DNA of 48,018 bases. Source: Desulfobacterales bacterium (GTDB taxonomy: Bacteria > Desulfobacterota > Desulfobacteria > Desulfobacterales > C00003060). The notes under the pieces are model-generated. The model ran no database searches. It was not told the origin of the DNA and worked only from the letters and a program-made list of their open reading frames with translations. Position numbers and translations under genes: made by a program. Shown in pieces: positions 3,695 through 42,855 of this stretch. The stretch spans positions 1 to 48,018 of the forward strand of contig JAQBAU010000263.1 in NCBI GenBank assembly GCA_032126655.1, in the 5' to 3' direction. Positions within the stretch are counted from its first letter, which is position 1. Each line of letters starts with the position of its first letter.

Positions 3695-4390
3695 ATGTAT
3701 CGATCAGGTCATAGAGGATCTTGTACCAAAGCTGCACTGTACGTGTTGATTGTTGTGAGTTTGTCCCTTGCGGGGTGTGCCAGCAGCGAACCAGCACCCA
3801 GTGCTCCACATCCGAAGGTGTCGAATGTACAAACGTTGCTGGTGGTGCCCTTTGGAATTGCGTCCGAAGGATACCAGGTGGGGACGACCGCGCGGTGTTC
3901 CATGTGCGGTACCATCTTTATCACCGGCCCCAGCGCTCCGAACGACGGCACGTACATGACAGATCAACTGTTGGCCTACCTGAGGACCAAGACTGACTAT
4001 ACTTTGATTCCTCCCGGGTCAGGTGCAGGGGTTCGAGCCCAGATTCTTTCAGAAACCATGGATATACCGGAGAGAGATCTCCTGCTCCAGATGGGCCGAA
4101 AGCTGGGCGCCGATGCCGTGGTCAGCGGCAAGATTTTTCGCTTCCAGCAGCGTGTGGGGACCTCCTATTCGGTCGAGACCCCAGCCTCTGTTGCCTTCAG
4201 CATGTATTTGCTGCGAGTAGTGGACGGGGACATGATATGGGCTGGAAATTTCGATGAAACCCAGCGACCTCTCAGTGAGAACCTTCTACAGATCTCCACA
4301 TGGGCCAAACGTGGGGCCCGTTTTCTTACCTCAGAAGAACTGGCCCACTCCGGGCTGACTAAGGTGATGGCCGCTTTTCCTGTTCCCTAG
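3695..4390 (+). CDS. Putative lipoprotein of unknown function
   Basis: 231 aa with an N-terminal signal peptide and lipobox LSLAGC. GGAAGGGGA Shine-Dalgarno. Inserted between hisB and hisA, where hisH usually sits. Confidence 0.7.
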   Translation: MYRSGHRGSCTKAALYVLIVVSLSLAGCASSEPAPSAPHPKVSNVQTLLVVPFGIASEGYQVGTTARCSMCGTIFITGPSAPNDGTYMTDQLLAYLRTKTDYTLIPPGSGAGVRAQILSETMDIPERDLLLQMGRKLGADAVVSGKIFRFQQRVGTSYSVETPASVAFSMYLLRVVDGDMIWAGNFDETQRPLSENLLQISTWAKRGARFLTSEELAHSGLTKVMAAFPVP

Positions 4391-9756: not shown

Positions 9757-10476
9757 GTGAAAAGACAGGTTGACCTTTTGGTAGAACTTCAGGAGAAAGA
9801 TAAGAAGATAGACCGGTTGAGATGGCAAATACGTCAAGGCCCTGAACGGCTCAAAGGACTTGAGACTCAGTTGCAGACGCTTGAACAAGTTATTGAAGCT
9901 GATAAGAAGCGGGTCGAAGAGCTTCAGCAGGCACAACGCGAGTATGAAAGTGACATAGAGGACGGCGTAGCGCACATCAGGAAAAGCCGGGGACGCCTTA
10001 TGGGCATCAAGAATAACAGAGAGTACAAAGCCCTGCTGAGAGAGATTGAGGATACCGAAAAAGAAAACGCAAAGAAAGAAGACAAAGTCTTGGAGTGTCT
10101 GGAGGAGATTGAAGGGCTTAGTCAGGGATTTGAATTGAAGGAAGACGAGCTGTCGACAAGGCGGGATGAGCTTGAAAGCGAAAGAAAAGCGGTTGACGAA
10201 GAAGTTGCCCGCATTGAGGAAGATCTCGCCGATATGGAACAGGGCAGGGAGGAGCTGACGCAGACCATAGACTCTAACCTCCTTGGAAAGTACAAACAGA
10301 TTAAAACAACGAGCGGCGCTATAGTACTTTCGCTGGTTAATCATGCCACTTGTGGCGCATGCCACCTGGGTATTCCTCCGCAGATGTACAATGAGCTTCA
10401 GAGACAAGACACCCTACAGTTTTGTCCTCATTGCCAACGCATTATCTACTGGAAAGAGGCTGAACCTACACCCTGA
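9757..10476 (+). CDS. COG1579-type coiled-coil protein with C-terminal zinc ribbon
   Basis: Long charged coiled coil, then CGACH...17 aa...CPHCQRI (two CxxC pairs). The GTG at 9757 is preceded by GGAGAG; the upstream part of the ORF (from 9685) looks non-coding. Confidence 0.8.
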   Translation: MKRQVDLLVELQEKDKKIDRLRWQIRQGPERLKGLETQLQTLEQVIEADKKRVEELQQAQREYESDIEDGVAHIRKSRGRLMGIKNNREYKALLREIEDTEKENAKKEDKVLECLEEIEGLSQGFELKEDELSTRRDELESERKAVDEEVARIEEDLADMEQGREELTQTIDSNLLGKYKQIKTTSGAIVLSLVNHATCGACHLGIPPQMYNELQRQDTLQFCPHCQRIIYWKEAEPTP

Positions 10477-10614
10477 CCGGCGGGTTCCCCGAGCAATGCC
10501 CACCTTTCGAGACTGGGGATTTCAGAAAATATGTTGCGTGTTTCTTGTGGGAAGCGTAATATAGCCATACCCAGTTCTTGACGTAAATGCAGTCCAACAG
10601 CTTTTCCGCCTGTG

Positions 10615-11004
10615 TCAGAGCAGGCCAAACGATCGCTCGCGTCTTCAGCTGTTTGCTGGCGATGCGGGAGGAAAGTCCGAGCTCCGGAGGGCAAGGTGCT
10701 CCGTAACGCGGAGTCGTGGCAACGCGAAGGAAAGTGCCACAGAAAAGATACCGCCTTGTGAAGAACTCACAGGGTAAGGGTGAAAAGGTGCGGTAAGAGC
10801 GCACCAGTTCCTCGGGTGACTGGGGAAGCTTGGTAAACCCCACCTGGAGCAAGACCAAATAGGGAAGCGCTTGAGGGTGGCCCGCCCAAGCTTCCGGGTT
10901 GGTCGCAAGAGGTATTGGGCAACTGATACCCAGAGATGAATGATCGTTGTTCCGTAAAGGGCGACCGATACGGAAAACAGAACTCGGCTTATGGCCTGCT
11001 CTGA
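10615..11004 (+). ncRNA. rnpB: RNase P RNA, bacterial type A
   Basis: Conserved blocks GGAGGAAAGTCCGAGCTCC, CCACAGAAAAGATACCGCC, GGTAAGGGTGAAAAGGTGCGGTAAGAGCGCACC, AGCAAGACCAAATAGG and ACAGAACTCGGCTTAT. P1 is a perfect 12-bp pairing, 10615-10626 with 10993-11004. Confidence 0.93.
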
Positions 11005-11037
11005 CTCTCATTACTGTTCAGGGAGACCTAGTAGGTT

Positions 11038-12351
11038 ATGACGAAGAAGATGGCAGTTCACGCCAACGTTGCCTTCGGTGAGAAGGTTAGTACATTCTCC
11101 AAAGAATTCCTCAAGTGTTGCCTCTATATCTCCAAGACTGAGCCCACTCGTGAGACATTTACTAAGAAGTTGTACGCCAAAATGGTTTCAACCTCCAAGC
11201 TACTGGAAGATTTCCTGGACATTCATGGTGCGAAGAACAATGCTCACTGGTATTACTATCGCGAACTCGTTTCGAGTGTGAGAAATCTGTCCGAAGCGAG
11301 CTATTCACAGAAACACATTGCAAAGCGATTCCCTATGTACGGGTTGGAAGAGACCGAGGGATTTAAGGAGAACGGATATGCCACACACAAGTTCCTGATA
11401 GACTCTTTGAGAAAAATATCCCGCACTGCATTGACCGAAGCGGGGCGGCTTCAAATCGAGTCACCCAAAAGTCGTTTTGAGTGGGACGATTTTCCGGGTA
11501 TATCGACGGAGAGTTTCCTCGAGTTTGACATCGATGATCAGGACTTGGAGGAAGAGAAGAAGAACCTCGTCAAGATAACCACCGAGTTTCTTAGGGTGGC
11601 CCAGGAATTTGAATCATTGGGTTTTTATGAGGTTTACAGCTTGGATGAGATCAGAAGAATCATTCCTTCCTGCTTCAATGAACAAGAGGCACGGCGATTT
11701 GAAACGGTCGTTCATAGCCTTCAGTCGTCCTTTGACACCTATGTGAACAGAAGTGGCGCGAGGTTTGACGATGTCAGACGCAAGGAGCTAAGGGGGTATA
11801 TTTCGGTCGTTCTTCACCTTTTAGAATTGACACGTCGTCTGTTGCACTACTACGAACGGCATCTCCATGAGGTAGGATACAGGAATATCTACAAGGGGGT
11901 ACGTGACAAATTGGCCACAGCCGTCAGTCCCGAATACATGCTTGATAGAATCGTGAATTACGGCCTTTACTATATCTCGCATTTTCTGGTGCAAGGTCAG
12001 GATGTCGCCCATGAGGTTCTGAACGAAAACATAGAACGTAGCTCCGTTTCAGTGGGGATACCCCAAGAACTCGGTTTTCATAGTCGGCCGTGCATGTTGG
12101 TCGCAAAGATCGTCCAGTATTACGGCGGTCAAGTGGAACTTTTGGTGGACTCCGATCAGTTTGATGCCAGCAGTGTTTTAGACCTTCAGTGGGCCGGGGG
12201 GAAGATTCAAAAAGAAGGGATCAAGGAGGTTGTCTTCAAGGGTGATCTTCGCGCTTTGAGGGACATCAAAATTCTTGCAAGTGTGAACTACGGTGAAGAC
12301 ACCATGGGCAAAGACATTGCGTTGCCGAAGGAGCTTTCCTACCTGAAGTAA
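11038..12351 (+). CDS. Protein of unknown function with a C-terminal HPr-like (PTS phosphocarrier) domain
   Basis: 437 aa. Residues about 335-415 align to HPr (GFHSRPCMLVAKIV..., His at nt 12079-12081, DASSVLDL, and G-x-x-V...KGD). I do not recognise residues 1 to about 330. Confidence 0.75.
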   Translation: MTKKMAVHANVAFGEKVSTFSKEFLKCCLYISKTEPTRETFTKKLYAKMVSTSKLLEDFLDIHGAKNNAHWYYYRELVSSVRNLSEASYSQKHIAKRFPMYGLEETEGFKENGYATHKFLIDSLRKISRTALTEAGRLQIESPKSRFEWDDFPGISTESFLEFDIDDQDLEEEKKNLVKITTEFLRVAQEFESLGFYEVYSLDEIRRIIPSCFNEQEARRFETVVHSLQSSFDTYVNRSGARFDDVRRKELRGYISVVLHLLELTRRLLHYYERHLHEVGYRNIYKGVRDKLATAVSPEYMLDRIVNYGLYYISHFLVQGQDVAHEVLNENIERSSVSVGIPQELGFHSRPCMLVAKIVQYYGGQVELLVDSDQFDASSVLDLQWAGGKIQKEGIKEVVFKGDLRALRDIKILASVNYGEDTMGKDIALPKELSYLK

Positions 12352-32216: not shown

Positions 32217-32533
32217 AATTCCCGCACAATCTTACGACAGACGAACCTTGAAGTGAGGCTTGAGTTTTTACATCTTCTTGACGATACCGCCATATTCCAG
32301 TTCAGAGTAGGGTAACATAGCGGCCCCAGAAAAACCCTGTTTTTTGATTTCATAGGTTTTGCGCGAAACCTTTTTCCGCACATAATCCCAGAACGGATGG
32401 TCAAAGGCGCCGGCACACCTTCCGGCAAAGGGGGGTCAAATACGTGGATGAGTTGGCTGAAGAAATCGCGTTGGCATTCGTTAGCCCTTTGGATCTGCTG
32501 TTCAGTTGGCTTTTTGGAGGTGCCAGCAGACAA
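32207..32533 (-). other. Doubtful or possibly frameshifted small ORF downstream of the GGDEF gene
   Basis: The first about 40 codons look protein-like (TEQQIQRANECQRDFFSQLIHVFDPP). After a C6 run (G6 on plus, 32430-32435) the protein-like reading moves to another frame (FDHPFWDYVRKKVSRKTYEIKKQGFSG...VKKM*). Confidence 0.25.
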
Positions 32534-32573
32534 GCCTATCTCCGGTCAGGCAATATCCCCTAATCGTATACAA

Positions 32574-33485
32574 TCAACTTTCATAGGACTCGACCCGGTT
32601 TCGTCCATTCTCTTTGGCTTTGTACAGAGCCTGATCCGCAAACTCAATGAGCTCTTTTGAATCGTGGATTTTCTCATGTGGAAATGTGGCAACTCCGACG
32701 CTGATAGTAACATGCAGGACATTACCATTGTCCTTAATCTCATGGCTTTCCACCATATGTCGGAGACGTTCAGCTGCCTCTATGGCTGCTGTCTGGTCTG
32801 TATGGTACATGATGAGCGCAAACTCTTCGCCTCCGTATCTTGCTGCCAAGTCGCTTTCCCTTATTGAGCGCTCAATGACTTCTGCGAGCGCCCTCAAGAC
32901 GACGTCGCCTGTCTGATGGCCATAGGTGTCGTTGAATTTCTTAAAGAAGTCTATATCTAACAAAACGCAGGATATAGTCTCATGATACCGTCTTGCACGC
33001 AAAAAATCCTGTGACAACTGTTCGTGGAAATATCGGTGGTTGTAAAGTCCTGTCAGTCCATCCCGATTAGCCATTTCCTGAAGTAGTCGATTCTGCTCCT
33101 GCACCTCTTGATAAAGTTCTCTGAGCTTCAGGTGAATATTCACACGAGCAATTAACTCCGCTTCATCAAAGGGTTTGATCACGTAATCCAGGGCCCCCAT
33201 CTGAAGACCTTTTACTTTGTCGGAGGTTTCTGCCTTTGACGTAACCATGATGATGGGAATCTCTTGAGTTGCTTCGTCCGCTTTAAGGTGTTCGCACACC
33301 TCGTAGCCATCCATGACCGGCATGATCAGATCCAACAGGATGATGTCGGGCTGTCCAAATTTGGCTGCTTCAACGCCGGCCTTGCCATCCTGAGCCAAAA
33401 TCACTTCGTGTCCCTGTTTGGTCAGCATGGTCTTGGCGACATGGGCTATCAACTTGCTATCGTCTACGATCAGTATTTTGGCCAT
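32574..33485 (-). CDS. Response regulator-diguanylate cyclase (REC-GGDEF, WspR/PleD-like)
   Basis: ILIVDDS...LLDLIMPVMDG...KP receiver domain. GGDEF domain with an intact GGEEF active site and an RESD (RxxD) I-site 5 residues upstream. Confidence 0.92.
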   Translation of the reverse strand: MAKILIVDDSKLIAHVAKTMLTKQGHEVILAQDGKAGVEAAKFGQPDIILLDLIMPVMDGYEVCEHLKADEATQEIPIIMVTSKAETSDKVKGLQMGALDYVIKPFDEAELIARVNIHLKLRELYQEVQEQNRLLQEMANRDGLTGLYNHRYFHEQLSQDFLRARRYHETISCVLLDIDFFKKFNDTYGHQTGDVVLRALAEVIERSIRESDLAARYGGEEFALIMYHTDQTAAIEAAERLRHMVESHEIKDNGNVLHVTISVGVATFPHEKIHDSKELIEFADQALYKAKENGRNRVESYES

Positions 33486-33537
33486 AAGACAATCCCCTGT
33501 ATCAGTAGTCTATTTCATAGATTTGTACAGAACCTCG

Positions 33538-34578
33538 TCATCGCTCAGCTAGCTTCGAAAGAACGATGCCCAAGATGTCACCGAGCGGAGCCACCACGTC
33601 AGCGGCACCAATCTCGATAGCCGCTCCGGGCATGCCAAAAACGACCGATGTGGCTTCGTCTTGAGCAATGGTAAAAGCCCCGGCCTGCTTCATTGCCAGG
33701 AGGCCGTCGCTCCCATCATTACCCATGCCGGTCAAAAGCACGCCAATAGCCTTGTCTCCTGCGGCCTTTGCAACCGAGTGGAACAAAACGTCTACCGAAG
33801 GCCGTTGATACTTCACCGGTTCGCCATGGTGCAGTCGGACGAAATATCCTTCGTGATCACTAACCAATTCCAGGTGTAATCCCCCGGGCGCTAAAAAGAC
33901 CTTCCCTCTGACGACGCGGTCTCCGTCTTCGGCCTCCTTGACGTCGAGCGCACAGGACGCGTCCAAGTTCTGTGCAAAGGTCTTCGTGAACCGAGGCGGC
34001 ATATGCTGTACAATAATCATTCCGTTCATATTTGAAGGCATAGCGACGAGAAGCCTATGGATAGCGCGTGTGCCGCCAGTCGAGGCTCCAATTGCGATGA
34101 TCCTGTCGGACGGGCCAATGAGAGCCTCAGGCACAGGGGGTTTTTCAGGCTGTCGGAACAGCACGGAGGGTTTGATTTTGGCCTGTGCAGCTGCCCGGAT
34201 TTTTGTCACGATTTCGTGTTTCAGTTCCTGAAGACCGGTCTTTAGGTCGTCAGTTGGTTTGGCAACGAAATCGACGGCCCCAGCGTCCAGGGCTTCTAAG
34301 GTGCGTACGCTGTTTTCACGGGTGTAAGAGCTGATCATGATTACTGGCAAAGGACGGAAGCTCATGAGGCGTTTCAGAAAGGTGATGCCATCCATTCTAG
34401 GCATCTCAATATCCAGAGTAATTACATCGGGTTTTTTTCGGACAATCAAGTCCTTAGCTTCATATGGATCAGAAGCCGTTCCCACTATCTGAATATCAGA
34501 TTCCTCCGCGAGAATGTTCTTCAGCACGGCCTGGACTGTAGGAGAATCGTCAACTATGAGTACGCGAATCGGTTTCAT
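33538..34578 (-). CDS. cheB: Protein-glutamate methylesterase/deamidase
   Basis: REC domain (IRVLIVDDS) plus the methylesterase domain (IAIGASTGG, LTGMGNDG, VVFGMP). ATGA overlap with the cheD stop. Confidence 0.95.
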   Translation of the reverse strand: MKPIRVLIVDDSPTVQAVLKNILAEESDIQIVGTASDPYEAKDLIVRKKPDVITLDIEMPRMDGITFLKRLMSFRPLPVIMISSYTRENSVRTLEALDAGAVDFVAKPTDDLKTGLQELKHEIVTKIRAAAQAKIKPSVLFRQPEKPPVPEALIGPSDRIIAIGASTGGTRAIHRLLVAMPSNMNGMIIVQHMPPRFTKTFAQNLDASCALDVKEAEDGDRVVRGKVFLAPGGLHLELVSDHEGYFVRLHHGEPVKYQRPSVDVLFHSVAKAAGDKAIGVLLTGMGNDGSDGLLAMKQAGAFTIAQDEATSVVFGMPGAAIEIGAADVVAPLGDILGIVLSKLAER

Positions 34579-35165
34579 GTCTTGAACATTATTACTGGGG
34601 ATTTTTCGAGTCGTTTCTGGAAAACCCTTGCCTTATAAGCCTGCTCATTCCGAACGAATCCTCGTTCTCTTCTTATATCAAACCGTTTCACAAGGACGCG
34701 AGTAGTATCACTGTAGAACATAATCTTTCTCCCCTTGTTTCCTCCAACATCTTCATTCACAGTAGGGATCCCCTCCAGCTCCAGAAACTTCCTTGCAAAA
34801 CGAATATTTGATGTGGTGACGTCGCCATCATCCCTTCTGAATTTAAGTACTTTGCCGCCCCCGAACAGTTTTGCCTTAAGGTCGTTTCTGCGAGCGCCAA
34901 GTTTGATCAGTTCGCCAATCAACAGTTCCATGGCATACATACCGTAACGGCCGACATCGCAAGAAAGCATCTCATCAGGATGTACCATTCCGGGAAGTAA
35001 AAAATGGTTCATCCCCCCCACTTTCCGTTCCGCGTCGTAGATACACGTGGCGATACAGGATCCTACGATAGTGTAAAGCACCTCACCATTTTGCGTTGCA
35101 AAATACTCTCCTGACGTGAGCATAATGAGAGTTTTCTTCAGTTTCTCGCTGTAAAACCGGTTCAA
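34575..35165 (-). CDS. cheD: Chemoreceptor glutamine deamidase
   Basis: LTSGEYFAT...TIVGSCIATCIYD...GGMNHFLLPG...LFGGG motifs. The start is uncertain. TTG at 35165 lies just after the cheR stop; the alternatives are TTG at 35234 (overlapping cheR) and ATG at 35123. Confidence 0.85.
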   Translation of the reverse strand: MNRFYSEKLKKTLIMLTSGEYFATQNGEVLYTIVGSCIATCIYDAERKVGGMNHFLLPGMVHPDEMLSCDVGRYGMYAMELLIGELIKLGARRNDLKAKLFGGGKVLKFRRDDGDVTTSNIRFARKFLELEGIPTVNEDVGGNKGRKIMFYSDTTRVLVKRFDIRRERGFVRNEQAYKARVFQKRLEKSPVIMFKT

Positions 35166-35181
35166 GCGCGTGTCCCGTTCT

Positions 35182-36012
35182 TTATCCCTGCTTCTGATAG
35201 GTGGAATGACCCACCAAGGCAAAGCGTTTATCAACGCCGATTAGCGACTCTGAGGCCCCTATACACAGAAAACCGTCTGTATCCAAAAGGCGGTAGAAAC
35301 CTGCAATGAGCTTCTTCTTGAATTGGGAATCAAAATATATCATCACGTTTCGACAAAAAATTATATCTACAGGACTCTTGAAAGGGAATTCCGCGCTCAT
35401 GAAGTTAAGCCTGCGAAAGACGATGTTTTTTTTCAGCTGTTCCTTAGCTATGTACAGTCCCTTATCCCTTCCCTCTCCTTCTATGAAATATCTCTTGAGG
35501 TACTATGTCTGAATCACTTCGATATCGCGGTTCGGATACGATCCTTTATAAGCAAGTTTAAGAGCGTCTGTATCAATGTCAGTGCCTAAGATCTTAATGT
35601 CCCAGTCCTCTTCGGTTGCAAGGGCGTCGTCTACTATCATGGCAATACTGTACGCCTCTTCGCCTGTTGCACATCCGGCGGACCATATACGCAGTTTCTT
35701 CGTAATCTTGTGTGCGGCAATCTGTGGCAGTACGATGTTTGCCATATGTTCAAATTGTCTTTTGTGCCGGAAGAATGCAGTCTGGTCAATGGTAATTTTG
35801 TTAATAAGTTGCCTAAGTTCCAATCCGCCATCTTTGTCATGAAGCAGGTGTTTATGATATGCACGGTACGAGTCCAATCCCAACTGGTTCATTCGTGAGG
35901 ATAACTTCCTCTGCAACGTTGCTAAATTTCTAGGAGATAATGAAATGCCAGCATGCTTGTTGATAAGTCGTCTGAATAGCTCAAACTCCGTCCTGGACAG
36001 GGGGGAGTTCAT
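35182..36012 (-). pseudogene. cheR: Chemotaxis methyltransferase CheR, full length but interrupted by one in-frame TAG
   Basis: ORFs 35503-36012 and 35182-35400 are in the same frame, and the 34 codons between them are also open. Read through, the sequence is ...IEVIQT*YLKRYFIEGEGRDKGLYIAKEQLKKNIVFRRLNF...IIFCRNVMIYFD. This aligns colinearly with E. coli CheR (...SPQLLQRYFMRG...AIFCRNVMIYFD). The TAG is at 35503-35505. Confidence 0.85.
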
Positions 36013-36030
36013 AACAGCTGACCGTGCGGA

Positions 36031-36483
36031 TTAGGTGGCATCAAGGATTTCGAGTTCCTCGGGACTCAAGAGTCGATCCGCATTCAATAAGACGATAAGC
36101 CCTTGATCTTTCTTCCCAATGCCTTGTATGTATTCCACGTGCACACCAGGAGGGAGACTGGACGCCGCCTGGACTTCTTCAGGTAAGAGTTCCACGACGT
36201 CGGAAATTTCATCCACAATCACTCCCATCATCCTTCCCGATATCTCCATAACAATAATCGAGTGGAAAGGGGTGTAGGTGGTTTTCGGGAGTTTAAACTT
36301 ATCTCTCAGATCAAATACAGGGAGAATTATTCCCCGCAGGTTGATGATCCCCTTGATGAATTCCTTCATGTTGGGCAGCGGGGTGATCTTCTGATAACTC
36401 ACAACCTCTTTTATTTTGAGGATGTCAACCCCGTATACTTGCTCGTTGATCGAGAAGATCACATATTGCTGCATTTCAGACAT
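36031..36483 (-). CDS. cheW: Chemotaxis coupling protein
   Basis: 150 aa. FSINEQVYGVDILKIKEV...INLRGIILPVFDLR signature. Its ATG overlaps the MCP stop (TGATG). Confidence 0.93.
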   Translation of the reverse strand: MSEMQQYVIFSINEQVYGVDILKIKEVVSYQKITPLPNMKEFIKGIINLRGIILPVFDLRDKFKLPKTTYTPFHSIIVMEISGRMMGVIVDEISDVVELLPEEVQAASSLPPGVHVEYIQGIGKKDQGLIVLLNADRLLSPEELEILDAT

Positions 36484-38795
36484 CAGAATTCCTCAAATCC
36501 TTCGTCCAACTCTTTGTCTATTGAGTCCTCCGGATTCTCTTCCATTGGTTGTTGGACGATAAGATCTTCACGTAAAGATTTTATGGTAGGAGGTACAGTG
36601 CCCCGCCTCTCTGTCTTTGAAAGGCGGAGGCTTTTTGAGAATCCGAGCTCTTCAATTTCGATATCACCCTCATCGCCCAAATTAAACTTTTCAGTCATAT
36701 GTTGCAGCTGGGCTGATTTTTGATTCAGCTGCTCGGTAGCACTGGCCAACTCGTCCACGAGTGTTGCATTGTGTTCAGTGACATCACTCAACTCCTCCAT
36801 CCCTTGTCCAATTTGCTCAATTCCACGTGAGCTTTCCTGAGTGGCTAACGAGACTTCGCTGAGTGCATCAGATACTTGTTTGATGGTCTGGATAATCTCC
36901 TTGAATCCGGCTTCGAGTTGGGCGACCCATTCCTTACCGGTGTTAACCTGGTCCATGATGTTACGCACAAGACTTTGAATATCCTTGGAGGCATCAGAAC
37001 TCCTCTTTGCAAGGCCGCGCACCTCGTTTGCGACAACGGCAAATCCCCGCCCCTGCTCTCCGGCACGGGCAGCTTCGACCGCCGCATTGATTGAAAGCAG
37101 ATTGGTTTGAAAAGTTATCTCGTTGATCAAATCCATCATCTCAACGATTTTGCGGCTACCCTCTGCCATGTCATTCATGGCCTGGGTTGTCCTTTCAACG
37201 GTCTCTCCACCGTCCACGGCCACAGCCACCGCCTCCTTTGCAAGAGCGTCGGCCCGTTGCATATTTGAAGCATTTTGGTTGACGTTGGATACGAGTTCTT
37301 CCACGGTTGCGCTTGTCTCTTCTACAGTAGCGGCCTGTTCCTGCGTTCGCTGCGAGAGCTCCTGGTTTCCCTCAGACATGTGCTGGACTCCCCTGACCAC
37401 CGTAAGCGCAGACCTTTTGGTTTGACTGATGAGCTCTTTCATCTGATCAAGGGTTGCGTTGGTCCTCTTCACCAGATGGTCCATTGCATCGTCTTCACCG
37501 CTCATCTCAGCTCTCACCGTGAGATCCCCATCAGCAACCTGTTCAAAAATGTCTGTCAGATTCTCAACTCTGTTCTGCAACTTCTTCTTTGCCGCCGCTT
37601 CCTTATGGATTGACTCTTTCAGGACCGATTCTGCTTCAACTTCTTTGGAGATGTCGCGTAAAAGTTCAAAACCGCCCAGGATGTTGCCATCAGAGTCCTT
37701 CAGGGCGGCCCCACTCACCATTATAGGAATTTCCTTTCCCGAAGCATCTTTCATGATAACCCTTTGACCTACGGTGGCCCGTCCCGTTTCCATTGCTCTT
37801 TTTATGGCGCAGGCAGTCTCACACACATCGCTATCAAATACCTCTCGACAGGTCATTTTTCCCTCAACATCCTCGGGCCGAACACCTGCAGCTTTTGCAG
37901 CAGCGTCATTCATATAGGTTACATTCATATCCGTATCCACCATGAAAAAGGGCTCTGAAATACCCAATTTGAGGCTGTTGGCGTACTCCATCCGGTCGCG
38001 AATGTTTCTGATCATCTGGTTAAAGTTGCCGGCCAGCCAGCCAATCGAGTCTCTGGTATCATCGTGGACTTCAACCGTGACATCCCCAGCTGAGACCTGC
38101 CCCGTCTTTTCCGCTAAGGCATGAATTCGCCGTGTCACCAGGCGATAAAAGAGGAAGTTAATAAGAAGAATGATCCCAACGATCTCCACCAGGGAAAATC
38201 CGATGAGGCGATTTCTGGCTGACGCCAGCAACGAATAGAGATCTGTGACGGAGCGTTTGACAACCATGGCGCCGAGCACTTTTCGAGTGGCTCCATGGCA
38301 GTGATGACATTGTCCTTCGTTTAAGAGGGGCCGGATCGTAACCAGGAAGGATTCATCGTCTTTGGACTCCGCGAAGGACTGGTCGGGCGACAGCCCCGAA
38401 CTCATGGCATCTCTGAGGGCTTTTTGGGTCTTTTCCTCCGACAGATGGTGCATGATGTTGGTATGAATAAGTTCCTCTTCTGAGGCATAGGTGAGCCTGT
38501 TGTCAAAGTCAGATATATAGACTTGCACGCCCTCCATATGACTTTTCATATCTTTCAGCTGCGCCTCAACAGTCTTGCTGTCTCCAATCGACATGGGATA
38601 TTTAATGGCGCTGTACGTGCTCTCGAGCAGGTCATGGCTCGACCGGTCCACTTGGTCTAAAGCGCTCCTGGTATGAAAAGACACGGTCTGATAAAGGAAC
38701 CCAGCCGTAAAGCCCACCACCACGGTAATTGTGGCAATGAGGATCTTGACGCGAAGCCCGGTTCCCTTGAGCAATCTGTCAATCCAGCTTATCAT
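36483..38795 (-). CDS. Methyl-accepting chemotaxis protein: TM, periplasmic domain with CXXCH, TM, HAMP, PAS, MA domain
   Basis: 770 aa with two TM helices (about aa 16-36 and 197-220). The periplasmic domain has a CHHCH motif (nt 38295-38309). HAMP follows, then PAS with C316/C325/C329. The highly conserved signalling hairpin is present (EITFQTNLLSINAAVEAARAGEQGRGFAVVANEVRGLA). GGAGGTG Shine-Dalgarno. Confidence 0.93.
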   Translation of the reverse strand: MISWIDRLLKGTGLRVKILIATITVVVGFTAGFLYQTVSFHTRSALDQVDRSSHDLLESTYSAIKYPMSIGDSKTVEAQLKDMKSHMEGVQVYISDFDNRLTYASEEELIHTNIMHHLSEEKTQKALRDAMSSGLSPDQSFAESKDDESFLVTIRPLLNEGQCHHCHGATRKVLGAMVVKRSVTDLYSLLASARNRLIGFSLVEIVGIILLINFLFYRLVTRRIHALAEKTGQVSAGDVTVEVHDDTRDSIGWLAGNFNQMIRNIRDRMEYANSLKLGISEPFFMVDTDMNVTYMNDAAAKAAGVRPEDVEGKMTCREVFDSDVCETACAIKRAMETGRATVGQRVIMKDASGKEIPIMVSGAALKDSDGNILGGFELLRDISKEVEAESVLKESIHKEAAAKKKLQNRVENLTDIFEQVADGDLTVRAEMSGEDDAMDHLVKRTNATLDQMKELISQTKRSALTVVRGVQHMSEGNQELSQRTQEQAATVEETSATVEELVSNVNQNASNMQRADALAKEAVAVAVDGGETVERTTQAMNDMAEGSRKIVEMMDLINEITFQTNLLSINAAVEAARAGEQGRGFAVVANEVRGLAKRSSDASKDIQSLVRNIMDQVNTGKEWVAQLEAGFKEIIQTIKQVSDALSEVSLATQESSRGIEQIGQGMEELSDVTEHNATLVDELASATEQLNQKSAQLQHMTEKFNLGDEGDIEIEELGFSKSLRLSKTERRGTVPPTIKSLREDLIVQQPMEENPEDSIDKELDEGFEEF

Positions 38796-38812
38796 GACTT
38801 CACCTCCACCGG

Positions 38813-39292
38813 TTAATGGGCACCACCGTGTACCATTGGTTTGTATCGAAAGGCGCTCACCCTTTCTTCAGTGTGACATTTCTGACAAATCTCTATGGTT
38901 ACCTTGGTAACAAGATCTCCCGGGTCCTCGCTCTCAATGTGTCTTCCACCCGGGCCATGGCAAACCTCGCAACCAGCGTCTTTCATTTCCGGGGTTTCTT
39001 CAAGACTGACAAAGCCACCGGGCTTGCCGAATCCGGTCGTGTGGCATACATAGCATCCCTTGATTTGATCGGAGGCAAGCCCCTTTTTCATTTTCAACAC
39101 ACTCTGAAACGAGTGGCTTTTTCGGGCATACTTGGTGAAGTTCTCGTACTCATGTTCGTGGCACGGCATGCAAGAATCGGACCCCACGTAGTCTATTGGA
39201 TCGTCTTCAGCCAAAGCCGGGAGGCACATAACAAAGAAAAAAACTATGCACACAAACCCCTTAGCCTGACTTGCCCTCTTTCTTGCCTTCAT
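38813..39292 (-). CDS. Periplasmic tetrahaem c-type cytochrome (cytochrome c554-like family)
   Basis: Signal peptide (VCIVFFFVMCLPALA) and four CXXCH motifs (CMPCH, CYVCH, CEVCH, CQKCH) in 159 aa. Overlaps the cheA 3' end by 32 nt and ends 17 nt before the MCP start. Confidence 0.9.
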   Translation of the reverse strand: MKARKRASQAKGFVCIVFFFVMCLPALAEDDPIDYVGSDSCMPCHEHEYENFTKYARKSHSFQSVLKMKKGLASDQIKGCYVCHTTGFGKPGGFVSLEETPEMKDAGCEVCHGPGGRHIESEDPGDLVTKVTIEICQKCHTEERVSAFRYKPMVHGGAH

Positions 39293-41432
39293 GGTTCATT
39301 TCTCCTTTAAGGGAATCCTTGAAAAAGATCTCCTCGAGTCCCAAAAGATCCAAGACCAGTGAGACCGAGCCGTCCCCCAAGATCGTAGCACCGGAAAGCC
39401 CCTTAACGCTGCGGTAATTGGTCTCGAGGGTCTTGACAATGATTTGCTTCGGTTCCAAAAGCTCATCAACAGCCATACCAAAGGCTTTTGTCCCCGTGTC
39501 CACGAAAATCACCACGCTACTGTGCCCATTTGTTGACGACGTTCCAGTGTCAAGAATCTTCGCAACGTTGACAAGTGGAAGATAGTCGCCCCGGAATGGA
39601 TAGACCCGTTCCTCCGATCCAACCTGTTTGACGAGGCTCTCTTCAAAGCGTTGAGTCCCGACAACGACCTGGACCGGCACCAGGTATGACGTCCCTTCAA
39701 CCACTACATGCAAGACTTCCATAAGGGCAGATGTCAGGGGGAGGCATAAGATAAAAGTTGTTCCCCTATCCTTTTCCGTCCGTACCTCTATGGTGCCTCC
39801 CAGTTTATCAAGCTGCGTTTTGACCACGTCCATCCCAACCCCCCTGCCGGAGAGCTCGGTGACTTCAGTGGTTGTGGAGAATCCGGATCTGAAAATGAAG
39901 TCGAGTAGTTCCTGTTCACTCGGGACCTGGTTGGGTTGAATCCAACCCTTCTCCAGAGCCTTTTGGTGGATGCTCTGTAGATCAATGCCTCTACCATCCT
40001 CTGAAATCTCAACGAAGATCCGCCCTCCCCTCTGGTATGCACGAAGTTCAACTGTTCCTTCCGGCGGTTTTCCTTTGGCCTCTCTTTCTTCCGGCGTTTC
40101 TATGCCGTGATCAACGCAGTTGCGGACGAGATGTTTCAGAGGGTCTGTACAGTATTCTATCACCTCTTTGTCCAGTTCAGTGTCAAGTCCGGCCAAGATC
40201 ACCTTGATTCGCTTGTTTTGTTTGAGGGCCAGATCTCTTGCCATGCGTTGAAATCTGCGAAATGTTCCTTCCAGAGGAAACATGCGGACCCTTGCCACAC
40301 GTTCCTGAAGCTCACGATTCACTTTCAGAAGGTTTTCCATCTCTTCCAGGATTTCCATGCGCTGGGAGCCAAGAAGTTTTTCTAGGAGCGACTGCGCCTT
40401 AGAAAGACCAATCCCCATCTCTTCACCCAGGTTCACGAGTCTGTCTATTTTATCCACGTCAACTCGAATGGTGGTTTTGCGATAGATTTTTCTGCTTTCT
40501 TCCTGCGCTGCAATTGCTTTCTCGAGTTCTTCGGGCTGAATCTTTCCGTCTTCAACCAGAATTTCACCGAGCATTTTCTGTTTCTTCAGGGCACGGGTCA
40601 ATGTCTCCTCGGTGATCTTGCTTTCTCCCACAAGAACTTCACCGAGTTTCTTGTCAGCCAGTTTTGTGTCGATGCCTTCCCTGTAGTCTTTGGTGATGTC
40701 TTCAATACGAATGTCATTGTCATCCATTACGAACATGAAGATATCATCAATGTCCTCTCTGGGCATCTTGGTCTTGATGATGATTTGCCAGGATATGTAG
40801 AGCTCGAACATGGAAAGGTTTTCGAAACCCGGAAGCTCTGAAAGGTTGGGCACTACTGAAACAAATTCGGCTAATTCAGAAAGATTGAGTAAAAGGAGGA
40901 GCGGATCCTGCCCGGAATAGAAGAGGTGTTTTTCGAAATTCAGATCAATCTTGTAGAAGGAAAACTTCTCTGCAGGTTCCTCGAGAGGTTGTGTCAGTGC
41001 TGCCTCGACTTCGTCTTCACGTGGAGTCGCAGCTTCCACGCCCAAATAGCGCTTTACCTGCCCCTGTCGCTGACTGAGAACTTCAGGGTCGGCTTCAGCT
41101 TCGCCTTCAGCCACCCGATCAAGCATGGATCGAATGAAATCGATGGCGTCCAGAAGGAAAGTAATCAGGTTATTTGTCACGGCCAGCTTGCCGGACCTGA
41201 GACGCTCCAGGAGGTTTTCAAGGAGGTGGGTGTACTCTGAAATACCCATAAACCCGACCATGGCCGCGCCACTCTTCATGGTATGAACAGACCTGAACAG
41301 TTGTTCTATGTCTTCGGTGGATTCAGGAGTGGATTCAAGCGCCAGCAAGCTTTCTTCGGCCGACTTTACCAGCTCATCCGTCTCGGAGAAGAAAATCTGC
41401 AGGGTTTCGTCCAGTTCACTCATTTCGGCCAT
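39261..41432 (-). CDS. cheA: Chemotaxis histidine kinase
   Basis: Hpt (FRSVHTMKSGA), dimerisation domain (IRVDVDKIDRLVNLGEE), HATPase (NCVDHGIE...DGRGID...GRGVGMDVV) and a C-terminal CheW-like domain. Start is ATG 41432 or ATG 41423; the latter forms an ATGA overlap with the cheY stop. Confidence 0.95.
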   Translation of the reverse strand: MAEMSELDETLQIFFSETDELVKSAEESLLALESTPESTEDIEQLFRSVHTMKSGAAMVGFMGISEYTHLLENLLERLRSGKLAVTNNLITFLLDAIDFIRSMLDRVAEGEAEADPEVLSQRQGQVKRYLGVEAATPREDEVEAALTQPLEEPAEKFSFYKIDLNFEKHLFYSGQDPLLLLLNLSELAEFVSVVPNLSELPGFENLSMFELYISWQIIIKTKMPREDIDDIFMFVMDDNDIRIEDITKDYREGIDTKLADKKLGEVLVGESKITEETLTRALKKQKMLGEILVEDGKIQPEELEKAIAAQEESRKIYRKTTIRVDVDKIDRLVNLGEEMGIGLSKAQSLLEKLLGSQRMEILEEMENLLKVNRELQERVARVRMFPLEGTFRRFQRMARDLALKQNKRIKVILAGLDTELDKEVIEYCTDPLKHLVRNCVDHGIETPEEREAKGKPPEGTVELRAYQRGGRIFVEISEDGRGIDLQSIHQKALEKGWIQPNQVPSEQELLDFIFRSGFSTTTEVTELSGRGVGMDVVKTQLDKLGGTIEVRTEKDRGTTFILCLPLTSALMEVLHVVVEGTSYLVPVQVVVGTQRFEESLVKQVGSEERVYPFRGDYLPLVNVAKILDTGTSSTNGHSSVVIFVDTGTKAFGMAVDELLEPKQIIVKTLETNYRSVKGLSGATILGDGSVSLVLDLLGLEEIFFKDSLKGEMNHEGKKEGKSG

Positions 41433-41803
41433 ACCACCTTTTTGACGGCCCACAGGAGCTGCTCCGGTTGGAAAGGCTTCAGCAGCCACCCGGAAGCCCC
41501 TGCAGCTCGACCCTCTTCTATCAATGACTCTTCAGATTCCGTGCTAAGAACCAGTATGGGGATGAATTTGAATTCGGTCTCTTTTACTTTCGTTATGAAA
41601 GTGATCCCGTCCATTCGCGGCATATTAATGTCGGTGATGATGAGAGCAAGGGGCTGCTCCTTGTCTTTTATGGACTGTAGTTTGTCGAGGCCATCCATTC
41701 CGTCTTCGGCCTCTGTCACCCTGTATCCTGCATTGCGCAGGCAGAAGGTGACTGATGACCTCATCGTCGGGGAATCATCTACAAACAGGATAAGCTTTTC
41801 CAT
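41420..41803 (-). CDS. cheY: Single-domain chemotaxis response regulator
   Basis: 127 aa. LFVDDSPTMR...ITDINMPRMDG...LSTE...KPF. Confidence 0.92.
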   Translation of the reverse strand: MEKLILFVDDSPTMRSSVTFCLRNAGYRVTEAEDGMDGLDKLQSIKDKEQPLALIITDINMPRMDGITFITKVKETEFKFIPILVLSTESEESLIEEGRAAGASGWLLKPFQPEQLLWAVKKVVWPK

Positions 41804-41815
41804 CTTGGCACACCA

Positions 41816-42118
41816 TCAAAGGAATGCGGTTCTAAGCCCCGAGAGGGACAAGATGTCCTCTACCTCAGCAGAGAGGGCAGAGATCTTCAACTCGGTATCA
41901 GGCTCTATCCACCTTTTAAAGGCAATGAGGAGTTGCAGGACAGCAGTATCTATAAACCCAACTTCCGCAAAGGAAATAACGATCTTCTTATTCTTTCCGC
42001 TTTTTAGGGACTTCTCTAGAAAATCTTTGAGCTCTTCCAGTTCATGGATAGTGAGCTCACCTTGAAGGTGGTAGGTGCCGCGTTTGTCTTGGTTTAAGCT
42101 AAAGTTTTTTGAAGCCAT
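41816..42118 (-). CDS. STAS-domain protein (anti-sigma-factor-antagonist-like)
   Basis: 100 aa. L.GELTIHELEELKDFL...ISFAEVGFIDTAVLQLLIAF is a typical STAS/SpoIIAA-like pattern. Located 12 nt upstream of cheY. Confidence 0.7.
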   Translation of the reverse strand: MASKNFSLNQDKRGTYHLQGELTIHELEELKDFLEKSLKSGKNKKIVISFAEVGFIDTAVLQLLIAFKRWIEPDTELKISALSAEVEDILSLSGLRTAFL

Positions 42119-42174: not shown

Positions 42175-42855
42175 TCACAGTTTCTCTCTATTTACAAATC
42201 CATTTAAGGAATCCGTCCTCGACAATTCAGGCACAAAATCAAACAGATCAGTGGCGAGGCAATATGAGAAGTCGTCTTCCTGTCCTAGGAGCCTGAGGCG
42301 TGCAGCCCCTTCCCCATCCATGATCCTTTTTATCATAGCATCGGGATTCTGGGGTTTTCCTTCCGCAATTCCCTTCAGATACTGCGCACAAAGATCATCT
42401 TCAATTGCCCTGGATACGCCTTCGGTGCCCACCGCCAGCCAAGTCACAAAGGGCGAATCGCTTTGGCTTAGCATGCCCACGAGTGCACGTGCATTAGCAA
42501 AGCTCCCGACAAGAATTCTTTCTGCATGTCGGGCATGCCATGTTGCCCGTGTGCCGCCGGAAGTCGTCAGAATAACGTTCTTACCCACAAGGTTCATCTG
42601 AGAGGCGTCGTGCGGGGAGTTGCCCATATCAAATCCGTCAATCGTTATTCCTTTACGCTCCCCGGCCAGCAAGCATTCAGGATGTAGCTTCTTTAGATCA
42701 AAAGCTTCCTTTACCTTCATTACGGGAATGACAGACGATGCTCCTCGAGCAAGTAGCATCAGAATCGTGTTACTTGCACGGAAGACATCGATGATGACAA
42801 CAGTGCCACCGGCAGTCTCGGCACCATCTATACCATGTCTGATAGTGGTCTTCAT
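42175..42855 (-). CDS. comB: 2-phosphosulfolactate phosphatase (ComB) family protein
   Basis: VVIIDVFRASNTI, LLAGERKG..I.GFDMGNSP, ILTTSGGTRA and EDDLCAQYL match the ComB family pattern. Confidence 0.8.
   Translation of the reverse strand: MKTTIRHGIDGAETAGGTVVIIDVFRASNTILMLLARGASSVIPVMKVKEAFDLKKLHPECLLAGERKGITIDGFDMGNSPHDASQMNLVGKNVILTTSGGTRATWHARHAERILVGSFANARALVGMLSQSDSPFVTWLAVGTEGVSRAIEDDLCAQYLKGIAEGKPQNPDAMIKRIMDGEGAARLRLLGQEDDFSYCLATDLFDFVPELSRTDSLNGFVNREKL

Follow-up and report, generated by a model that had tools for sequence, protein, structure and literature searches.

A conserved F7-like chemosensory operon of sulfate-reducer-type bacteria with a putative periplasmic haem receptor, a tetrahaem cytochrome c and a diguanylate cyclase gene

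The minus strand of a 48,018-nt stretch of DNA from a Desulfobacterales bacterium (contig JAQBAU010000263.1; hereafter the window, to the full length of which all coordinates refer) carries, between positions 32574 and 42118, ten closely packed genes for a chemosensory pathway, in which the gene of a receptor with a putative periplasmic haem c lies next to that of a secreted tetrahaem cytochrome c and the final gene encodes a diguanylate cyclase with a receiver domain (REC-GGDEF). The locus is a conserved signalling operon of sulfate-reducer-type bacteria, all of its parts coming from known families, while their combination and the pairing of receptor and cytochrome appear to be new. We interpret it, with a probability of roughly 0.6, as a dedicated pathway of the ancestral F7 type, outside the Wsp family, which would translate a redox or small-gas signal from the periplasm into cyclic di-GMP (c-di-GMP) by way of the receptor with its cytochrome, CheA and feedback control.

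Conservation, gene content and class of the operon

The order of the genes recurs in relatives. Scans of one genome per species in GTDB, with the cytochrome and the sensor domain of the receptor as queries, followed by tblastn with all ten window proteins, retrieved it from 39 distinct genomes or clusters, in Desulfobacteria/Desulfobacterales-type metagenome-assembled genomes (MAGs) and down to 35-48% identity. The conserved order is STAS-cheY-cheA-(cytochrome)-MCP-cheW-(cheR)-cheD-cheB-REC-GGDEF, the receptor being a methyl-accepting chemotaxis protein (MCP). Such a search for co-occurrence and gene order had been suggested in an initial annotation made from the sequence of the window, and its recurrence across 39 distinct genomes means that coincidence can realistically be discounted. 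A contig from a Joint Genome Institute (JGI) metagenome (L316), annotated independently, carries exactly these ten genes, for which Pfam hits had already been computed, the same 32-nt overlap of cheA and the cytochrome gene, and an intact CheR of 277 aa. The stand-alone cheY is conserved in every cluster (62-95% protein identity across orthologous clusters), and the STAS gene is kept at the same position in relatives. REC-GGDEF, whose linkage was judged only in loci with 10-kb flanks, directly follows cheB in all 11 clusters with that end visible, including one (L166) that has no cytochrome gene. When the REC-GGDEF protein itself was used as query, the genome scan was dominated by generic cyclases and recovered no true orthologue. 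One 4-kb contig with the order cytochrome-MCP-cheW-cheD (L195, JAIWHJ010000249.1) had been binned in a MAG labelled 'Promethearchaeota archaeon', an archaeal label that probably reflects binning contamination.

Within the window, the ten minus-strand open reading frames (ORFs) and their domains were established from the ORF list with its translations, Pfam, additional NCBIfam profiles and, for structural matches, PDB sequences (Table 1). The tight packing described in the initial annotation was borne out: the widest intergenic gap, of 52 nt, separates cheB from REC-GGDEF, and the junction sequences agree that the cytochrome gene, its ATG preceded by AAAGGAGA, overlaps cheA by 32 nt and that its TAA lies 17 nt before the ATG of the MCP gene, which has GGAGGTG as its ribosome-binding site. 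Two genes probably start inside their longest ORFs. For cheA, the true start is most likely the ATG at 41423, which forms an ATGA overlap with the cheY stop codon and yields a protein of 720 aa, the length that an independent gene caller assigned to the orthologue in L316. For cheD, conservation with relatives begins near aa 24 according to tblastn coverage, and the start is probably at 35165 or 35123. Simple scans for promoter-like and terminator-like sites within the operon gave no excess over shuffled sequence, so that transcript boundaries were deduced from spacing and synteny, by which the region is predicted to be one operon.

The gene content separates this operon from the Wsp system of Pseudomonas (WspA-F, WspR), to which it had initially been likened. 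Both have a Che-type phosphorelay with a REC-GGDEF diguanylate cyclase output encoded in the cluster, and the REC-GGDEF of the operon strongly matches WspR (3bre, E=8e-60). However, WspE is a CheA-REC hybrid, two CheW-like proteins (WspB and WspD) are present in Wsp and CheD and a stand-alone CheY are missing from it, whereas the Pfam and NCBIfam profiles identify here a CheA without receiver domain (as is also the case in L316), a single CheW, CheD, a stand-alone CheY and a STAS protein. Receptor class and signal differ as well. Membership in the Wsp family was therefore rejected and the two systems are not orthologous; the term 'Wsp-like' holds as a description of the probable mode of output but not as a family assignment.

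By its gene content and order, a receptor of 36H length and the GFEEF tail of this receptor, the operon matches instead a non-Wsp chemosensory pathway of the ancestral F7 type. The 'stage 1' cluster of that type comprises an anti-sigma-factor antagonist, cheY and cheA, then a receptor, and then cheR, cheD and cheB (Ortega et al., PMC7184735); the order STAS-cheY-cheA, receptor, cheR-cheD-cheB found here fits it, with cheR present as an interrupted frame. The STAS protein matches the NCBIfam model for anti-sigma factor antagonists with E=2.7e-11, a score under the cutoff of that model. In a length and alignment test, aa 409-705 of the MCP align with aa 221-516 of Escherichia coli Tsr, a receptor of class 36H, and the signalling hairpin is free of indels, whereas alignment with Thermotoga maritima TM1143 (2ch7), which spans 234 residues of the query and 255 of the chain, requires them. 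The pentapeptide GFEEF conforms to x-[HFYW]-xx-[HFYW], the C-terminal tether motif for CheR and CheB (PMC7184735); GFEEF or GFEEY is found in all full-length receptors aligned from orthologous clusters and is absent from the stand-alone cytochrome-adjacent MCPs.

Known examples of the ancestral F7 type ('stage 1/2') are Aer2/Che2 of Pseudomonas aeruginosa, cluster III of Vibrio cholerae and Che1 of Shewanella oneidensis (PMC7184735). The operon shares with them the STAS-cheY-cheA start, the cheR-cheD-cheB end and a dedicated 36H receptor with a pentapeptide and a cytoplasmic PAS domain, and departs from them in several respects. Aer2 is cytosolic and has a b-haem PAS, whereas the operon receptor is transmembrane with a predicted periplasmic c-haem sensor. 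The McpA-like receptor, second STAS protein and serine phosphatase of F7 clusters are found neither in the operon nor in the 48-kb window, and the single cheW is placed after the receptor gene, whereas the F7 cheW precedes it. The operon has in addition the tetrahaem cytochrome gene, REC-GGDEF as its last gene and, within CheA, an insert of the MshE type. It is found in Desulfobacterota, the known examples in Gammaproteobacteria, and the likeness is one of gene content, gene order, receptor length and motifs.

The predicted haem receptor and its proposed cytochrome partner

Judged from its domain and motif matches, the receptor is a member of a known family of periplasmic c-haem sensors (DcrA, GSU0582/0935, sCache_heme). 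Its CHHCH motif (aa 163-167) is placed in the periplasm because it is flanked by two hydrophobic segments, at about aa 17-37 and 190-212, and a covalently attached haem c can be predicted from it. The periplasmic domain matches Pfam PF21563 (Mcp40H-20_sensor) with 32.9 bits against a cutoff of 27 bits, the HAMP, PAS and MCPsignal domains being matched too, and aligns with 3b42 across the haem helix (E=0.007). Residues C163, H165, C166, H167 and G168 show no variation across sets of 68 and 74 aligned sensors; all of the latter carry C-[HFY]-H-C-H-G, and the subfamily signature extends to N-[EDN]-x-x-C-[HFY]-H-C-H-G. The extra invariant His inside CXXCH marks the sensor subfamily that is paired with cytochromes, whereas the Geobacter structures have CQSCH. 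A protein-database search with the sensor alignment returned 17 short fragments, none of them usefully named. The periplasmic CXXCH receptor singled out by the initial annotation thus has the motif in the expected compartment, but it is not a new feature, since the family has been described (PF21563; 3b42, 3b47).

Within that family, DcrA of Desulfovibrio vulgaris combines a periplasmic c-haem sensor with HAMP, a cytoplasmic PAS and an MCP domain (PMC8396549; PMC2886117). The operon receptor resembles DcrA as well as GSU0582 and GSU0935 of Geobacter sulfurreducens in having a periplasmic sensor with one CXXCH between two transmembrane helices, and DcrA also in the cytoplasmic PAS ahead of the MCP signalling domain. 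These three are stand-alone genes, whereas the operon receptor sits in a che operon with a cyclase. The PAS domain of the receptor contains a cysteine triad (aa 316, 325 and 329, C-x8-C-x3-C, MTCREVFDSDVCETACAIK; 37809-37850, minus strand), kept in about half (14-15/28) of the PAS-bearing cytochrome-adjacent receptors, which might form an additional site, on the cytoplasmic side, for sensing redox state or metals.

The tetrahaem cytochrome with signal peptide reported initially between cheA and the MCP gene was confirmed by its ORF and by PF13435, whose cutoff is 20.8 bits, and its four CXXCH motifs are invariant in 80 homologues. It aligns with cytochrome c554 of Nitrosomonas europaea (1bvb, E=1.5e-7) over haem motifs one to three and around G-P-G-x-x-H. 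Both are tetrahaem members of the Pfam Cytochrome_C554 family (1bvb/1ft5), and they differ in size (about 130 mature residues here against 211) and in genomic partner, which is a sensor here and hydroxylamine oxidoreductase in Nitrosomonas; with 35 bits against the 400-bit cutoff of the NCBIfam c554 equivalog model NF043010, the operon cytochrome is not an equivalog. An AlphaFold2 model made with 40 sequences had a predicted local distance difference test (pLDDT) value of 54.5, too low for a fold search, and the homologues, in at least 1093 database clusters, are named only 'cytochrome c family protein' or 'hypothetical'. Outside the haem motifs, the only histidines invariant in the 80 homologues, for four haems, are H118 and H159; K58 is also invariant, H60 occurs in 76% and M68 in 68%. 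At least one haem may therefore be without a distal His ligand, as is haem 2 of Nitrosomonas c554.

The c554-family cytochrome and the CxHCH sensor form a portable two-gene cassette, which is a new result and makes the link between cytochrome and receptor more general than initially proposed, the two genes being adjacent in most genomes that have either. In the cytochrome-first scan a sensor gene is adjacent in 73 of 77 loci with room for it, in the sensor-first scan the cytochrome gene is adjacent in 58 of 72, and a second set centred on Desulfovibrio gave 65 of 75. The genes lie on the same strand with a typical spacing of -17 to +130 nt and many stop/start codon overlaps, and the cassette occurs in Desulfobacterales, Desulfobulbales, Syntrophobacteraceae, Desulfovibrionaceae, Desulfomicrobium and Nitrospirota/Thermodesulfovibrionales, mostly without che genes nearby. 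Among 68 sensors, 61 are MCPs and 5 are histidine kinases; sensor loci number at least 524 in all. In the literature that we searched there was no mention of a cytochrome partner for DcrA, the Geobacter sensors or any haem MCP, and the preprint that recently redefined the family as 'sCache_heme' notes as sole cytochrome link a Flavobacteria-specific fusion to a cytochrome c-like domain (PMC12889525). A link of the cassette to DcrA itself is not shown by these scans, since D. vulgaris Hildenborough was not retrieved and the cytochrome of its relatives has no receptor neighbour.

The distribution of the cytochrome bears on the question of whether it is a passenger in the operon, that is, an ordinary periplasmic electron carrier functionally unlinked to the receptor. 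The general carriers listed for the periplasm of sulfate reducers include cytochromes of the c554 type (PMC10553843). The gene is missing in 8 of the 32 orthologous clusters with a visible junction, where the CXXCH receptor follows cheA within about 40-280 nt, and it is solitary in Nitratidesulfovibrio and Halodesulfovibrio (L081-L087, L091) and in L317; in the D. vulgaris group, the pairing with a sensor is lost or was never present. Yet the adjacency to a homologous haem sensor in all three sets of loci spans several orders and two phyla, the pairs keep to one strand with very short gaps or overlaps regardless of the surrounding genes, and the 32-nt overlap with cheA recurs in L316, which makes a passenger quite improbable. 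From the eight clusters without it we conclude that the cytochrome is the usual accessory of the operon and not an obligatory part: the absence from orthologous clusters that the initial annotation had considered contrary to its proposal is real in a minority, and 24 of the 32 keep the gene between cheA and the MCP gene. Beside the solitary cytochrome gene of L083 (5839-6381) lies a convergent RNA-methyltransferase-like ORF.

In the F7-type pathway that we favour, the receptor would be a DcrA-type transmembrane MCP whose periplasmic Cache/PAS-like domain bears one covalent c-type haem at the invariant CxHCH. The co-translated secreted cytochrome would be its private redox partner, equilibrating with the periplasmic electron pool and setting or restoring the redox state of the sensor haem and its ligation. 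A different division of labour is possible, if on the doubtful side, in which the receptor haem would directly sense NO, O2 or CO and the cytochrome would be a maintenance or protective partner and not a relay, either re-reducing the sensor haem or scavenging or reducing NO at a five-coordinate haem such as Nitrosomonas c554 has in its haem 2. NO-sensor properties have been proposed for sCache_heme domains fused to signalling modules (PMC12889525), the invariant H118 and H159 with the frequent H60 leave room for an open or weak sixth ligand, and the receptors of eight clusters do without a cytochrome. However, the sCache_heme proteins tested come from Pseudomonas, are only distantly related and carry another haem motif, the subfamily described here has the invariant extra His, ligand binding by its sensor is putative only, and the pairing across MCP and kinase outputs equally fits a signalling partner.

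Output, kinase linker and adaptation

The simplest candidate for the output of the pathway is c-di-GMP synthesis, as the initial annotation had also proposed, because REC-GGDEF is conserved as the terminal gene with its functional residues intact. In addition to WspR, its PDB matches include PleD (5e-73) and Leptospira DgcR (2e-54). The alignment with PleD, in which RESDLAARYGGEEF corresponds to RAIDLPCRYGGEEF, confirmed the previously noted GGEEF active site and RxxD I-site (RESD, five residues upstream), and all phospho-acceptor residues of the receiver domain (DD/D/T/K) are present, which is the residue set of an active, feedback-inhibited cyclase of the PleD/WspR type. We found no characterised Che-to-cyclase pathway of sulfate reducers in the literature searched, which agrees with the earlier remark that this combination is not known as a characterised system.

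Along the proposed route, a conformational change of the sensor would travel through HAMP-PAS-HAMP to the 36H signalling hairpin and, through CheW, control the autophosphorylation of CheA. Phosphorylated CheA would then serve three receivers. Transfer to REC-GGDEF would activate c-di-GMP synthesis, the principal output. CheB would act in adaptation along with CheD and, in clusters that have it intact, CheR, tethered via the GFEEF tail of the receptor. The single-domain CheY would be either a sink for phosphate or another branch, in which the STAS protein might take part. The conservation of the stand-alone CheY in every cluster would also suit a pathway for aerotaxis or redox taxis, in which CheY would be the real output, acting on flagellar rotation, and REC-GGDEF the phosphate sink or side branch. 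DcrA, which the receptor resembles, has been tied to oxygen/redox sensing and aerotaxis (PMC2886117; PMC8396549), and the 36H/F7 class governs flagella in enterobacteria (PMC7184735). We regard taxis as unlikely, given that ancestral F7 clusters of this gene order are reported to be non-motility (PMC7184735), that REC-GGDEF is the terminal gene in 11/11 clusters with an intact catalytic site, that a c-di-GMP-type motif in CheA fits a c-di-GMP circuit, and that Pfam scans detected no CheZ, CheC, CheX or flagellar genes in the operon or elsewhere in the 48-kb window.

The c-di-GMP-type motif of CheA, which like the nonsense codon in cheR had been missed by the initial annotation, is a tandem pair of 24-residue MshE-type motifs in the linker between P1 and P3. 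Full-length CheA matches NCBIfam NF053729 ('cyclic di-GMP-binding domain, MshE-related', 53 residues) with 46.7 bits against a cutoff of 38 (E=1.9e-12), and the linker matches the GSPII/MshEN repeats of Thermus thermophilus PilF (6f8l, 'c-di-GMP binding domain of PilF', E=3.5e-11) as well as MshE. The likeness to MshEN of V. cholerae MshE and T. thermophilus PilF GSPII (PMC5013675) lies in the two tandem 24-residue motifs of the form [RK]LGxxLVxx[GS]xIxxxxLxxxLxxQ, whereas CheA holds only the motif pair, of about 49 residues, without the rest of the MshEN domain, and a low-confidence fold model did not yield a four-helix bundle. With respect to the relaxed pattern [RKPN]hGxxhhxx[GAS]hhxxxxhxxxhxx[QNKRYWST] (Wang et al., PMC5013675), repeats I and II agree at 10/11 and 9/11 constrained positions, neither being an exact match. 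The pair is conserved in 8/8 orthologues examined, and its deviations (a charged position 11 and, in motif II, a Met at position 1) likewise recur conserved among orthologues. Pfam recognised no T2SSE_N/MshEN domain in the linker, merely a weak DUF4388. CheA is listed as an MshEN fusion partner in a supplementary table of Wang et al. (PMC5013675), and a characterised MshEN-CheA fusion was not found in the literature searched. Binding of c-di-GMP by the linker is plausible, and the motif pair suggests feedback from the pathway's own product, which would act on the activity or the localisation of the kinase.

These elements might combine into a widespread 'wired receptor' module of Desulfobacterota and Nitrospirota, a reading that we put forward only tentatively. 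The tetrahaem cytochrome would be an antenna, sensory and not respiratory, coupling the redox state of the periplasmic electron pool to the single haem of the sensor. The circuit would be closed by a c-di-GMP-gated CheA loop, in which the MshE-type motifs would sense the product of the operon's own REC-GGDEF, perhaps in a site completed across the CheA dimer.

Adaptation appears to be variable. An in-frame TAG (35505-35503) breaks the cheR frame of the window at codon 170, where five relatives have Glu, the closest one (L001) with GAG. Recoding of this codon, by pyrrolysine or readthrough, was rejected, as TAG ends 5 of the 32 genes of the window and the relatives have Glu. By these comparisons cheR either is a nonsense pseudogene here or carries a sequencing error, and the nonsense codon fits a recurrent loss of cheR because the gene is absent in 13 of 33 orthologous clusters and present in 20. 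In clusters without cheR, the receptors still carry the CheR/CheB-tether pentapeptide.

Several observations count against the F7-type redox-to-c-di-GMP pathway proposed here, or against parts of it. The cytochrome, missing in 8 of 32 clusters and solitary in some lineages, is on that account dispensable for the sensor and functional without it. The conservation of the stand-alone CheY and of the STAS protein means that c-di-GMP may be neither the sole nor the main output, and with cheR inactivated here and absent elsewhere, classical methylation-based adaptation may not operate. As to the kinase linker, the NF053729 score exceeds its cutoff only as the sum of partial stretches, the charged position 11 makes the exact relaxed motif fail, and the spacer between the repeats is one residue long in all nine sequences, against five in MshE (5-7). 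A single-sequence AlphaFold2 model of the CheA insert (pLDDT 70.7, low confidence) fuses helices 2 and 3, and with this low-confidence model Foldseek returned no MshEN/PilF match and nothing below E=1. An inter-subunit site across the CheA dimer would reconcile the short spacer with ligand binding, which is speculative.

Genomic setting and significance

Table 1. Genes and motifs of the chemosensory operon in the 48,018-nt window.
Feature	Coordinates	Strand	Evidence
STAS-domain protein, anti-sigma-factor-antagonist type, operon gene 1	41816-42118	-	Pfam STAS_2 45.9 bits, STAS 43.1 bits, both above cutoff
CheY-like single-domain response regulator	41420-41803	-	Pfam Response_reg 89.7 bits
CheA histidine kinase	39261-41423 (likely start ATG 41423; longest ORF to 41489)	-	Pfam Hpt, H-kinase_dim, HATPase_c, CheW
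Tandem 24-residue MshE-type (MshEN-like) motif pair, CheA P1-P3 linker	40503-40649	-	KLGEVLVGESKITEETLTRALKKQ, K, MLGEILVEDGKIQPEELEKAIAAQ
Secreted tetrahaem cytochrome c, c554 family, 159 aa, signal peptide, four CXXCH	38813-39292	-	PF13435 64.3 bits
MCP: transmembrane helix 1, predicted periplasmic c-haem sensor, transmembrane helix 2, HAMP, PAS, HAMP, 36H-length signalling domain, linker, GFEEF	36483-38795	-	
CHHCH of the receptor (aa 163-167), predicted site of haem c attachment	38295-38309	-	Alignment with GSU0935 and GSU0582 (3b42, 3b47) at their haem motif
GFEEF, C-terminal pentapeptide of the MCP	36486-36500	-	x-[HFYW]-xx-[HFYW] tether motif for CheR/CheB
CheW coupling protein	36031-36483	-	Pfam CheW 122 bits
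cheR methyltransferase frame, broken by in-frame TAG	35182-36012	-	Pfam CheR_N and CheR, split over two ORFs
CheD receptor deamidase	34575-35234 (longest ORF)	-	Pfam CheD 98 bits; NCBIfam CheD models
CheB methylesterase, REC and CheB_methylest	33538-34578	-	NCBIfam PRK00742 424.9 bits (cutoff 293 bits)
REC-GGDEF diguanylate cyclase, final operon gene	32574-33485	-	Pfam GGDEF 177.8 bits, Response_reg 105 bits

The rest of the window is ordinary chromosome, with hisB, hisA/F, dnaG, rpoD, ispD, pyrD, dxs, xseA and malQ, and no partner-switching genes were found in the 48 kb around the operon. Upstream of the STAS gene and on its strand, a gene for a 2-phosphosulfolactate phosphatase (ComB-like; 42175-42855, minus strand) ends at a distance of 56 nt. 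Its synteny is limited to the closest relatives (L001-L003), and it may or may not share the transcript of the operon. Past the REC-GGDEF stop codon lies a non-coding stretch of 357 nt (32217-32573), in which a simple scan found no terminator-like hairpin. The two genes downstream encode a 185-aa protein without Pfam hit and a MORN-repeat membrane protein, and their synteny is kept in relatives at varying distance. Three further ORFs of the window, of 437 aa (11038-12351, plus strand), 181 aa (10466-11011, minus strand) and 231 aa (3695-4390, plus strand), have no Pfam hit at E<=1e-5.

The new elements of this locus are the cytochrome-sensor cassette, its insertion in an F7-like operon that ends with a cyclase gene, and the CheA with c-di-GMP-type motifs; the haem receptor was already known. 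Should the functional inferences fail, the locus would still be correctly annotated as an F7-like che cluster. The CheA insert offers a test of direct c-di-GMP regulation of a chemosensory kinase, in a fusion that has so far only been tabulated in a supplement (PMC5013675). Both redox sensing outside the cytoplasm and the choice between planktonic and biofilm life are poorly understood in anaerobes such as sulfate reducers, and the operon is a conserved candidate for linking a periplasmic haem signal to the biofilm messenger c-di-GMP. The pairing of the cytochrome with a CxHCH sensor occurs in hundreds of genomes; if the proposed function is true, it would represent an unusual, sensory role for multihaem cytochromes and would provide receptors of the DcrA type, now 30 years old, with a partner that can be tested.

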